Shown here one piece after another: positions 56,130 through 61,550 of a stretch of 64,000 bases of DNA; position 1 is the stretch's first letter, and each line of letters starts with the position of its first letter. The translations under genes and the position numbers were made by a program. The stretch lies in NCBI RefSeq assembly GCF_003334765.1, contig NZ_QOWT01000013.1; one strand, written 5' to 3'. The stretch is from Escherichia coli (GTDB taxonomy: Bacteria > Pseudomonadota > Gammaproteobacteria > Enterobacterales > Enterobacteriaceae). The notes under the pieces were generated by a model. It was not told where the DNA came from and did not search any database. It saw nothing but the letters and a program-made list of their open reading frames with translations.

Positions 56130-56217
56130 GGTGAGGTGTCCGAGTGGCTGAAGGAGCACGCCTGGAAAGTGTGTATACGGCAACGTATCGGGGGTTCGAA
56201 TCCCCCCCTCACCGCCA
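56130..56217 (+). tRNA. serW: tRNA-Ser (anticodon GGA)
   Basis: 88-nt sequence GGTGAGGTGTCCGAGTGGCTGAAGGAGCACGCCTGGAAAGTGTG...GGTTCGAATCCCCCCCTCACCGCCA: acceptor stem, long variable arm, T-loop GGTTCGAATCC and encoded CCA; anticodon loop CUGGAAA. Confidence 0.95.
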
Positions 56218-57508: not shown

Positions 57509-57760
57509 TTACCAGTCGAAAGTGGGGAACCCCGGCAGACATTCTGCGCCGGCGTCCAGATGAATGAGACTGACGCCATAACGCCGGGTGAGAGTGACGA
57601 CCAGACGACGGAACGTTCTTGACAGGCCCAGGCGTTTAAGCCGCAGAACCGGGTACGACCATGCATCGGTACGTAACAGATACCAGTCGCGGGCTTTTTC
57701 CCGTACGGTGGAGGATAGCTCATGCAGTGTATACACGGTGGTGGTGATAATTCTGCTCAT
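57509..57760 (-). CDS. 83-aa hypothetical protein in the slot where CP4 islands carry the CbeA/CbtA-type antitoxin-toxin pair; weak resemblance to the CbtA/YkfI toxin C-terminus
   Basis: ATG start, TAA stop; contains YLLRTD (compare YALVRTD / YELVRID in CbtA-family toxins); too short for either partner. Confidence 0.4.
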   Translation of the reverse strand: MSRIITTTVYTLHELSSTVREKARDWYLLRTDAWSYPVLRLKRLGLSRTFRRLVVTLTRRYGVSLIHLDAGAECLPGFPTFDW

Positions 57761-60188: not shown

Positions 60189-60305
60189 AATTTGCTCCTT
60201 ATCGGTGGTTAAGATTTACTGGTGTAATAAATGAAAAAGCCACGTCTCCCGGAGAAGACGCGGCCTGACAGATGAAATGAATGACGTTTATTGTCTGAGA
60301 AGCCC

Positions 60306-60530
60306 TTAACTGGCGAGCCGCGTATTAAGCTGTGTTCCGGTATCGGGCTCAAAATTCCGGCAGCACCAGCGCAACTGACCTCCAGCATTACGGATAACCA
60401 GCCGGAAATGTGTTCCCAGGTCATCTTCCGTAAACACATTGCTGTAAGTTGTTGTGACGGCAACCACCTGTTCGCATGAGAAAGGGCCTTCGGGAAATAA
60501 GAGTAATGTACAGCCCTCATGTATTTTCAC
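60306..60530 (-). CDS. Hypothetical small protein (74 aa, GTG start)
   Basis: Only protein-like ORF in the 60189-60625 gap; no clear Shine-Dalgarno; overlapped by a 103-aa ORF in another frame with less protein-like composition. Confidence 0.3.
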
Positions 60531-60625
60531 CTGAAAATAAAAGTCGCTGTAATCATGGCAGGGCCGTATTTATTTTTGATATTAATAAATTAATAACGCG
60601 AAAATGAACCGCATAACTTACTCCT

Positions 60626-61108
60626 TTAATTTGTTTTGTTTACGTAGTCCTTGACCAGGTACGCGAATTCGTGAACGCCAATTTCACCAAACCAAATCAG
60701 GTAACCAGGGTCGATGTTGTAATAGTAACCAACGACTTTATGTGTTTTTGGGTTATAGAGTGTTATGATAAAGTTCCACCCGCAAGCGTGAGCTTTACAA
60801 CCACCACCTTCTACCCAGGTCGTTCCGTTAATGTTTACAGGATATGCACCACCGCCAGGACCATCCATATAGCCGTCTTTACCGAACATCCCGTCCAGTC
60901 CGACGGGATTTAGTGTTTTGTCGATAGCTACTCTGTAGGTAGCGTCACCTTCGTATAACTCGTACGTTGTTGGACATGCACCAGGCTGGCCAGACCAGGC
61001 TTTTGAGTCGCATTTAAGGGTCTGATTTACAGTGGCGGCGTTTGTGTCAGGACTTACACCAATAAACAGGAAAACCAGAAAGAACATCAGAGTATGTAAA
61101 CGTTTCAT
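60626..61108 (-). CDS. Exported Ivy-family-like protein (putative lysozyme-inhibitor paralog)
   Basis: 160-aa ORF with signal peptide (MKRLHTLMFFLVFLFIGVSPDTNA), good RBS (AAGAAGGAA) upstream, and a CKAHACG motif aligning with the Ivy CKPHDCG loop; downstream segment ...KTHKVVGYYYNID resembles Ivy ...KSNQMTGLFSTID. Confidence 0.6.
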   Translation of the reverse strand: MKRLHTLMFFLVFLFIGVSPDTNAATVNQTLKCDSKAWSGQPGACPTTYELYEGDATYRVAIDKTLNPVGLDGMFGKDGYMDGPGGGAYPVNINGTTWVEGGGCKAHACGWNFIITLYNPKTHKVVGYYYNIDPGYLIWFGEIGVHEFAYLVKDYVNKTN

Positions 61109-61550
61109 TATAAATTCCTTCTTAGGTTATTTAGCACTGCGATTTAAAGTAATACGGCCGATTAACTCAGTGCTATGAAAGAAGTCCACAGCGGTATAAT
61201 TACCGACCGCTAATGGATATTGCCGGACATTACCTTCGCTTGCCCACAGACAATATCATTGAGTCGTTGATAAACATACGTGTCGGGATCGGCAATAATC
61301 AGCCCTGCACAATTGTCATCATGCATTAAACGATAAATTTCCAATTTACTGAAATTTCGCATTAGTTCAGGGACTTCATCAGGATTGATAATGGATGAAT
61401 ATAGAGCCGGGTTGTAATAGTGAATATCCGGCTCGCCGAAAGTATAAGTGTGCTGATACCAACAATACAGACAATAGCGATGGTATAAAGTATCAAGTGC
61501 TTTTTAAAATAGACTGGAAACCAGATCCCCCTTTTTACTTACCTGTGTTA

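Follow-up and report, generated by a model that had tools for sequence, protein, structure and literature searches.

The window analysed here is a 64,000-nucleotide stretch of Escherichia coli DNA (contig NZ_QOWT01000013.1 of assembly GCF_003334765.1), which carries on its minus strand a small gene whose product is remotely homologous to Ivy (Pfam PF08816), the inhibitor of vertebrate lysozyme. We refer to it as the Ivy-like gene. Our results are best explained if the gene is low-GC cargo on a tRNA-Ser-linked CP4-type integrative island and codes for a soluble periplasmic protein of the Ivy fold, and that the product is such a periplasmic, Ivy-fold homolog we hold to be highly probable. The open reading frame (ORF) runs from an ATG at nt. 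61108–61106 to a TAA stop codon at nt. 60628–60626 and corresponds to a product of 160 a.a; a Shine-Dalgarno-like motif (Table 1) lies within the 20 nt upstream of the start codon, AACCTAAGAAGGAATTTATA.

The N-terminus of the protein has the layout of a Sec-type signal peptide. In MKRLHTLMFFLVFLFIGVSPDTNA, followed by ATV, the basic residues K2 and R3 precede a hydrophobic core (mean Kyte-Doolittle value of 2.8 over residues 6–18), and Thr and Ala occupy positions −3 and −1 of the predicted cleavage site before Ala25; across E. coli alleles, M1-K2-R3-L4, L7, and M8 never vary. By these features, the protein is predicted to be exported to the periplasm, as expected of the Ivy superfamily. It contains four cysteines (C33, C45, C104, and C109). 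The first two, invariant in E. coli alleles and at least 90% conserved in a 36-sequence family alignment (see below), lie in a stretch that stays unaligned to Ivy in profile comparison with hhalign and are presumably joined by a disulfide. The other two bound the loop CKAHACG, encoded by TGT AAA GCT CAC GCT TGC GGG (nt. 60799–60779), which stands in register with CKPHDCG of E. coli Ivy in the PDB, BLASTP, and hhalign alignments alike. With BLASTP against Ivy of E. coli K-12, 13 of 46 residues around the loop were identical (28%; E 1e-6, for a single pairwise comparison). The preliminary description of the locus, which had pointed to a signal peptide and to an Ivy-like loop with flanking similarity, agrees with these findings.

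Table 1. Positions of the Ivy-like gene, its parts, and the features around it in the window.
Feature	Position (nt.)	Strand	Remarks
Ivy-fold exported protein gene	60626–61108	minus	complete ORF, 160 codons plus TAA (ORF list)
Shine-Dalgarno-like GAAGGA	61116–61121	minus	7 nt before the ATG, inferred from sequence
Sec-type signal peptide (predicted), residues 1–24 (MKRLHTLMFFLVFLFIGVSPDTNA)	61037–61108	minus	by inspection and hydropathy
Mature domain, residues 25–160	60629–61036	minus	two helices, five-stranded sheet, and C-terminal helix (model); allelic cassette elsewhere
N-terminal cysteine pair C33...C45 (C-x11-C-P)	60974–61012	minus	extra module that canonical Ivy lacks
Loop CKAHACG, residues 104–110	60779–60799	minus	homologous to the lysozyme-inserting loop CKPHDCG of Ivy
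Orphan neighbour, 180 a.a, signal-peptide-like N-terminus	61551–62093	minus	upstream of the Ivy-like gene, low GC
Patatin/Ag43 remnant ORFs	62228–62701, 62655–63251	minus	
tRNA-Ser(GGA), island insertion site	56130–56217	plus	ARAGORN

Direct searches, in which the single window protein was compared with Pfam, NCBIfam, and the PDB, all gave Ivy matches below threshold, which bears out its earlier characterization as highly divergent. In Pfam, PF08816 was the sole family reported at E ≤ 10 (i-E 0.0053, sub-threshold), with no match to MliC/PliC, PliG, or PliI under the same limit. The NCBIfam equivalog model of Ivy (NF007443) gave 19.3 bits (E 8e-4) and did not reach its curated cutoff of 180 bits, and a phmmer search of the PDB yielded only four matches at E ≤ 10, all of them Ivy chains and none significant (E 0.19–0.35).

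The relationship to Ivy is carried by profile comparisons. An alignment of 13 E. coli alleles matched a canonical Ivy reference alignment (20 enterobacterial sequences) in hhalign with 93.5% probability (E 2.2e-7) over 89 columns, which extend past the loop to include the preceding helix and the following strands. When 1.8 billion representative proteins were scanned with a hidden Markov model (HMM) built from the E. coli sequences, 59 relatives were obtained at E ≤ 0.001, and the 36-sequence family alignment matched the Ivy alignment with 99.0% probability (E 2.5e-18, 115 columns). As a profile against the PDB, the family matched Ivy of E. coli (E 1.9e-12) and of Pseudomonas aeruginosa (E 1.9e-9), and 26 of its 36 members individually matched PF08816 at E ≤ 0.001. 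This chain of homology goes beyond profile drift, given that the window protein aligns directly to one relative, P0162 (tblastn, 30% identity over 164 aligned positions, full length; E 5.6e-15 in a small database), which itself carries a PF08816 match. The narrow 13-allele profile was uninformative against the PDB, a mannanase ranking first (E 0.017) and Ivy reaching E 1.2.

Our statements on the fold rest on an AlphaFold2 model computed from a deep alignment (pLDDT 89.4, pTM 0.81; all five models at 87–89), which replaced a first model from a narrow alignment (pLDDT 66; top seven Foldseek matches Ivy, E 0.16–0.57). The model has helices at residues 27–32, 48–54, and 56–69, five strands within residues 89–140, and a C-terminal helix at residues 145–159, and it places the C104...C109 loop between strands 96–104 and 112–119, with a pLDDT of 94 for residues 101–110. 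Foldseek, run against 350,542 PDB chains, returned Ivy in all of the top eight positions (probability 1.00, E 1e-4 to 1e-2), with target-normalised template modelling (TM) scores of 0.63–0.70 for seven (121–130 aligned columns) and of 0.46 for one shorter alignment; the next match falls to a probability of 0.09. As modelled, the window protein thus has the Ivy fold. Taken with the profile matches, this supports the preliminary description at the level of both family and fold, in that the gene represents a divergent, island-borne branch of the known Ivy family. Of the two outcomes that the description had named as refuting, no significant Ivy match in a profile search and a predicted fold unrelated to Ivy, neither occurred.

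The best structural match was Ivyp1 of P. aeruginosa (PA3902; PDB 1UUZ and 4PS6), the product of a chromosomal gene of another genus, at E 1e-4 and a target-normalised TM of 0.68–0.70 over 130 columns with 16–18% identity. Compared to E. coli Ivy (YkfE, b0220; PDB 1GPQ and 1XS0), the canonical periplasmic c-type lysozyme inhibitor, the window protein shares the predicted fold (probability 1.00, target-normalised TM ~0.64), predicted periplasmic export, a similar size, and a six-residue Cys...Cys loop at the homologous hairpin in which Lys and His are kept. Unlike E. coli Ivy, it has the N-terminal Cys pair and an 18-residue insert at residues ~71–88, and it is without the C-terminal segment SIDGKTVL...GSL.NHP, which is invariant in the 20 Ivy sequences: the alignment stops near Ivy residue 127, and in the model the protein terminates in a helix where Ivy has its conserved C-terminus. 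Given a score of a tenth of the equivalog cutoff, the altered loop, the missing C-terminus, and the extra N-terminal Cys pair and insert, the window gene is not an Ivy ortholog.

An allelic family in Escherichia coli

We surveyed 5426 complete E. coli genomes for the gene, the preliminary description having left the distribution of this paralog to be established. It was found in 2333 of them (43%) by sensitive blastn, with at least 80% coverage in 1930 and up to four copies (roughly 2,800 copies in E. coli altogether), and in 132 by the stricter megablast. Unlike core ivy, which occurs in 5425 of the 5426 genomes and always at ≥95% identity, the Ivy-like gene is accessory, island-borne, and hypervariable, with 12 clusters that show 63–92% protein identity to the window protein over 160 a.a. 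The same gene neighbourhood recurs at other E. coli loci in our set (L001, L002, L007, L014, and L016–L020), where the gene occupies an island slot between a DUF905/DUF932 side and a patatin-RdcB-dynamin side. By its full-length similarity and its position in this slot, the window gene belongs to the E. coli island Ivy-like clade. The gene is absent from the CP4-57 island of K-12, and the CP4-57 proteins YfjT and YfjS were rejected as members of the family, no similarity being found.

The ORF is a real gene under purifying selection, with pairwise ratios of nonsynonymous to synonymous divergence (dN/dS) between alleles of 0.12–0.45 (typically ~0.2) and dS values of up to 1.7. How the variation is distributed is best seen in two loci of the same island architecture (L016, nt. 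4986–5474; L018, nt. 2986–3468), which differ by 116 nt in the gene, all in codons 26–160, and by only 1 nt in 986 nt downstream and 1 nt in ~500 nt upstream. The mature domain is exchanged as a recombining allelic cassette, which begins at codon 26, where cleavage of the signal peptide is predicted, and ends with the last codon. Given that synonymous sites are also saturated, this pattern reflects the import of old alleles by recombination, not local hypermutation.

Within the mature domain, the loop (residues 104–111) is the most constrained segment, with a ratio of nonsynonymous to synonymous polymorphism (pN/pS) of 0.10, and strands 89–103 are the least (0.49); no positive selection on the loop was seen in this comparison by region of nine alleles with evident recombination, pN/pS being below 1 everywhere. 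C104 and C109 are the sole invariant columns of the 36-sequence family. The window allele keeps the Lys and His of the Ivy loop (CKAHAC), and E. coli alleles show CKAHAC, CKANAC, CKANTC, CKSNAC, or CKSDAC. At the loop tip, most clusters have Asn and one has Asp; His is confined to the window allele and three further clusters. One allele (L020) is 87% identical to the window protein yet has Asn at this position, so that even close alleles can differ by the His/Asn switch. Of 28 distant relatives, 24 have His at the homologous position, and the full-length ones have in common the N-terminal motif C...CPY along with the loop pattern C-[EQK]-x-H-x-C. The conservation of a Cys-Lys-x-His-x-Cys loop, to which the preliminary description had drawn attention, therefore holds for the two Cys residues and fails for His among the E. 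coli alleles. We also noted that codon 103 (nt. 60800–60802), directly before C104, accounts for the sole amino acid difference (G103D) from the 99.6%-identical L001 allele.

The gene is nearly always annotated as a hypothetical protein. The common form is annotated as 225–227 a.a, the first 65 codons of which are a remnant of the orphan neighbour gene (Table 1) lying in frame just before the Ivy-like ATG (L007, nt. 3986–4663; L016, nt. 4986–5669; L017, nt. 4986–5663; L018, nt. 2986–3663; all on the minus strand). At the fusion junction, ...AIYNGRIFT is followed by MKRLH..., and the deletion that created it is estimated from the window coordinates at roughly 0.8 kb. The 195-nt remnant is near-identical among alleles with Ivy domains that differ by 20–35%, and the few of its differences that were translated change the amino acid; the remnant has probably no function in the protein, the true start of which is probably the internal ATG. 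Elsewhere, the gene, though intact at 160 codons, carries a PGAP/RefSeq flag as a partial pseudogene with a missing N-terminus (L001, nt. 8227–8715; L002, nt. 6090–6578; L014, nt. 4001–4489; L020, nt. 3001–3489), and the flagged copies are sometimes named 'Ivy family c-type lysozyme inhibitor'. Given that the reference protein is the longer fusion form (223–227 a.a), the flag is apparently an annotation artefact. Some 43% of complete E. coli genomes thus carry a gene that is nearly always either labelled hypothetical or wrongly flagged as a truncated pseudogene, and its identity as an Ivy-fold protein gives it a testable function.

Island setting of the gene

The core genes ftsK, serS, and aat precede tRNA-Ser(GGA), after which the CP4-type island begins. 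Its genes are arranged in the order DUF4942, DUF957, DUF987, RadC/JAB, antirestriction, DUF932, DUF905, and the Ivy-like gene, beyond which lie the 180 a.a orphan and the remnants of a patatin gene and Ag43. The gene thus sits in an accessory island on the downstream side of tRNA-Ser(GGA), among RadC, DUF932, antirestriction, and Ag43 genes, and apart from the canonical ivy locus, found between yafV and fadE in K-12; the preliminary description had likewise placed it in the accessory island, far from chromosomal ivy. The nearest complete genome is that of strain LSN03-016011/A (L001; 99.8% identity over nt. 60400–62300), to which the island backbone aligns from nt. 56123 onward. Relative to that island, the window has two deletions. 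One of ~1.8 kb (nt. 57681–57682) has removed the CbtA/YeeU toxin-antitoxin module, and one of ~6.4 kb (nt. 62679) has removed most of the patatin gene, RdcB, the dynamin-like gene, and most of Ag43, joining the C-terminal part of the patatin-like protein to the N-terminal ~170 residues of Ag43.

The Ivy-like gene is part of a low-GC pocket (nt. 60300–62200; 39–46% GC versus 53–60% in the island backbone) that reaches from DUF905, across the Ivy-like gene and a 442-nt spacer without annotation, to the orphan neighbour. Two hairpins of the minus strand that resemble terminators (nt. 62208–62192 and nt. 60266–60237) could bound one transcription unit; a simple scan of nt. 60300–62200 found no promoter-like site on this strand. 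In the spacer, two small ORFs are present on the minus strand (nt. 61210–61496; 50 a.a, and a hydrophobic product of 44 a.a with a TTG start), both unannotated in the reference genome.

The orphan neighbour is the only adjacent gene for a secreted protein. Its product has four cysteines and no match in Pfam, NCBIfam, PADLOC, or PHROGs, and the gene was found by megablast in 40 of the 5426 E. coli genomes, versus 132 (megablast) and 2333 (blastn) for the Ivy-like gene. One suggestion of the preliminary description was immunity against a muramidase effector. As regards a neighbouring effector, this is disfavoured, given that the orphan is without a recognisable domain, is absent from most carriers of the Ivy-like gene, and mostly persists as the 65-codon remnant; an effector-immunity pair formed with it was accordingly rejected. 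Among related sequences, three predicted proteins (P0015, P0016, and P0023) are chimeras with a dynamin N-terminal or DUF932 part and an Ivy-like C-terminus, which suggests that this island segment is prone to gene-fusing deletions.

Proposed mode of action and target

The enzymes inhibited by Ivy proteins are c-type lysozyme and, as seen in vitro, lytic transglycosylases, with MltB being inhibited in vitro by both Ivyp1 and Ivyp2, and MltA and MltB partly by E. coli Ivy (PMC10139938, PMC10746161). The pair formed by Ivyp1 and Ivyp2 (PA5481) in P. aeruginosa also indicates that Ivy paralogs can share one genome and inhibit a lytic transglycosylase in addition to lysozyme. By analogy, we propose, with a probability of about 0.55, that the Ivy-like protein is an inhibitor of a peptidoglycan glycan-cleaving enzyme that acts by loop insertion. 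Sec would export the protein, and the signal peptide would be cleaved after Ala24. The C104–C109 loop, presumably closed by a disulfide, would project from the beta-hairpin, such that residue 107 (His in the window allele) would enter the active-site cleft of a lysozyme or lytic transglycosylase, enzymes that cleave peptidoglycan in its glycan strands, and the target would be blocked stoichiometrically, as by Ivy.

As for the identity of that enzyme, a foreign and variable target is more likely than host c-type lysozyme, given that core Ivy exists, that the paralog is mobile and hypervariable, that an apparent allele has a phage phenotype, and that T4 Spackle provides a precedent. Host c-type lysozyme is already covered by core ivy, which makes it the less likely target, and the contrast between an invariant core gene and an island paralog with a swapped mature domain likewise points to a target that is variable and probably foreign. 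The apparent allele is hypo_04657 of E. coli O121, which was called Ivy-like (loop CKANTC) in the 2024 PHAGEPACK preprint; its knockdown by CRISPR interference (CRISPRi) raised the fitness and plating efficiency of T7, and in the authors' proposal the protein is a lysozyme inhibitor that acts on the phage enzyme (bioRxiv 10.1101/2024.04.20.590424). The same loop is found in alleles P0007, P0008, L016, and L017 (~70% identical to the window protein), and hypo_04657, which is annotated in the 225–227 a.a fusion form and differs from the window allele by Asn for His and Thr for Ala in the loop, is apparently an allele of the E. coli Ivy-like family, as assigned by loop and description only. T4 Spackle (gp61.3), a small periplasmic protein exported by Sec, inhibits gp5, a virion-associated lysozyme, and is considered to protect cells from T4-like phages that arrive later, which sets a precedent for an anti-phage role. 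It is a functional analogy only, given that Spackle has an unrelated fold, is phage-encoded, and acts allosterically, staying out of the active-site cleft (PMC7650644).

That the target is a phage enzyme we put forward tentatively; our best guess would be an enzyme with its site of action in the periplasm, for example an endolysin, or a lytic transglycosylase or muramidase associated with the virion. A similarly doubtful extension is that the island Ivy-fold proteins might constitute an anti-phage barrier in the E. coli periplasm that is widespread, takes a single gene, and has escaped cataloguing. Their action would be to neutralise the virion enzymes that cut peptidoglycan for wall crossing, or endolysins; the exchange of cassettes and the toggling between His, Asn, and Asp would reflect an arms race with variable phage enzymes, and each allele would have its own phage spectrum. 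If a phage cell-wall enzyme is indeed the target, the gene would provide a simple periplasmic defence, effective either ahead of genome entry or once it has taken place. It would be the counterpart that the host itself encodes to T4 Spackle, and its alleles would amount to a natural library of inhibitor specificities.

Several points weigh against loop insertion into a glycan-cleaving enzyme, and against a phage enzyme in particular. The direct HMM matches are far below the family thresholds, and the C-terminal segment of Ivy is missing. CKPHDC is reported as strictly conserved in 30 Ivy-family members and, by mutagenesis, as essential for inhibition (PMC4262234, citing Abergel 2007); the window loop, CKAHAC, is without the Pro and Asp of this motif, and most E. 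coli clusters have Asn or Asp in place of His, so that, unless many alleles function in another manner, His must be dispensable. E. coli Ivy itself acts only weakly on lytic transglycosylases in vitro, with no effect in vivo (PMC10139938), and the T7 phenotype comes from a preprint and a different allele and was obtained by CRISPRi, with its possible polar effects on genes downstream (bioRxiv 10.1101/2024.04.20.590424). No consistent peptidoglycan hydrolase neighbour was found in the window or beside the distant homologs, the contexts of which differ (EAL/SrfB, DUF1176, cytochrome c, and a CP4-type island). T7 lysozyme, moreover, is a cytoplasmic amidase, which does not readily suggest itself as the target of an Ivy-like protein in the periplasm; the more plausible candidate in T7 would be gp16, through its transglycosylase domain. 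No Ivy-like homolog was found in phages, either by tblastn in 50,697 phage records or by structure in BFVD, and a phage origin of the gene was rejected on the same searches. PADLOC-DB 2.0 gave no match for the Ivy-like protein or the orphan neighbour, the patatin and dynamin genes of related islands matching PADLOC only weakly, and PHROGs gave one weak match, to a family of unknown function.

The alternatives to this mode of action differ mainly in what the protein would bind. The Ivy fold could have been re-used for another target altogether (a periplasmic enzyme, a colicin or effector, another phage protein, or a chaperone-like role), which would account for the changed loop chemistry (CKAHAC, CKANAC, CKANTC, CKSNAC, and CKSDAC), the extra N-terminal Cys-pair module, the 18-residue insert, and the loss of the Ivy C-terminus. 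It would also suit the relatives in which the domain is fused to unrelated modules (a caspase domain and an uncharacterised C-terminal domain) and the EcoCyc-style annotation of Ivy as a 'periplasmic chaperone'. We nevertheless consider it rather unlikely, since the position and length of the loop, its two Cys residues, and the family-wide His are the most conserved features, which argues that the ancestral loop-insertion mode has been retained. Less likely still is a second inhibitor of vertebrate c-type lysozyme that backs core Ivy and MliC in gut or extra-intestinal colonisation, which would make the gene a strain-variable colonisation factor. The Ivy fold, the Lys and His kept in the window loop, and the activity of Ivy on c-type lysozyme speak for such a role, as does the name 'Ivy family c-type lysozyme inhibitor' that NCBI gives to relatives. 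This name, however, derives from family membership and not from an assay, practically all E. coli have core ivy, CKPHDC is not kept, with His lost in most alleles, and the extreme allelic diversity and cassette exchange fit a conserved host enzyme poorly.

A regulator of the cell's own lytic transglycosylases that damps autolysis, as proposed for P. aeruginosa Ivy, would be in keeping with the in vitro inhibition of MltB by Ivyp1 and Ivyp2 and the partial inhibition of MltA and MltB by E. coli Ivy. Such a role is very improbable for an accessory gene absent from 57% of the genomes and from K-12 CP4-57, the more so as conserved housekeeping enzymes leave the hypervariable alleles unexplained and E. 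coli Ivy is weak on lytic transglycosylases without an in vivo effect. There remains the view that the gene is a decaying remnant or resembles Ivy by chance, to which one could be led by the PGAP flags on ORFs of identical length in several genomes, the two deletions in the window island, and the sub-threshold direct matches. We give it next to no credence: the ORF is uninterrupted and has a ribosome-binding site and a signal peptide of its own, dN/dS is ~0.2 across alleles with dS above 1, and the 'missing N-terminus' arises from comparison with in-frame fusions of 223–227 a.a, which together essentially refute the pseudogene reading of the RefSeq flags, and a chance resemblance is excluded by the profile-profile, PDB profile, and fold matches.

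The Ivy-like nature of these proteins has already been noted, in the 2024 preprint for the apparent sister allele and in NCBI names for other genera. We found no earlier description of the 43% prevalence, the misannotation as pseudogene or fusion, the hypervariability of the mature-domain cassette, or the His/Asn/Asp toggling.

Relatives outside E. coli

The closest relatives outside E. coli are proteins of Salmonella enterica (P0155, 314 a.a) and Pectobacterium (P0154, 316 a.a), both named 'Ivy family c-type lysozyme inhibitor' by NCBI, which match the E. coli profile at E ~1e-21 and show, in a separate comparison, 34% identity. They have the N-terminal C...CP motif in common with the E. coli proteins, a CEA[HN]NC loop in which Glu takes the place of Lys, and an extra cysteine-rich C-terminal domain of ~150 a.a, which in the Salmonella two-domain protein gave no informative match (weak DUF7908). 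The Pectobacterium copy (L008, nt. 3795–4745) lies in a CP4-type island with genes for a GTPase, DUF932, RadC, CbtA/CbeA, DUF4942, DarT/Macro (DarTG), and two integrases. A metagenomic protein of 439 a.a (P0190) joins an Ivy domain (Pfam E 9.2e-11, loop CKAHDC) to a C-terminal Peptidase_C14 caspase domain (E 3e-41).

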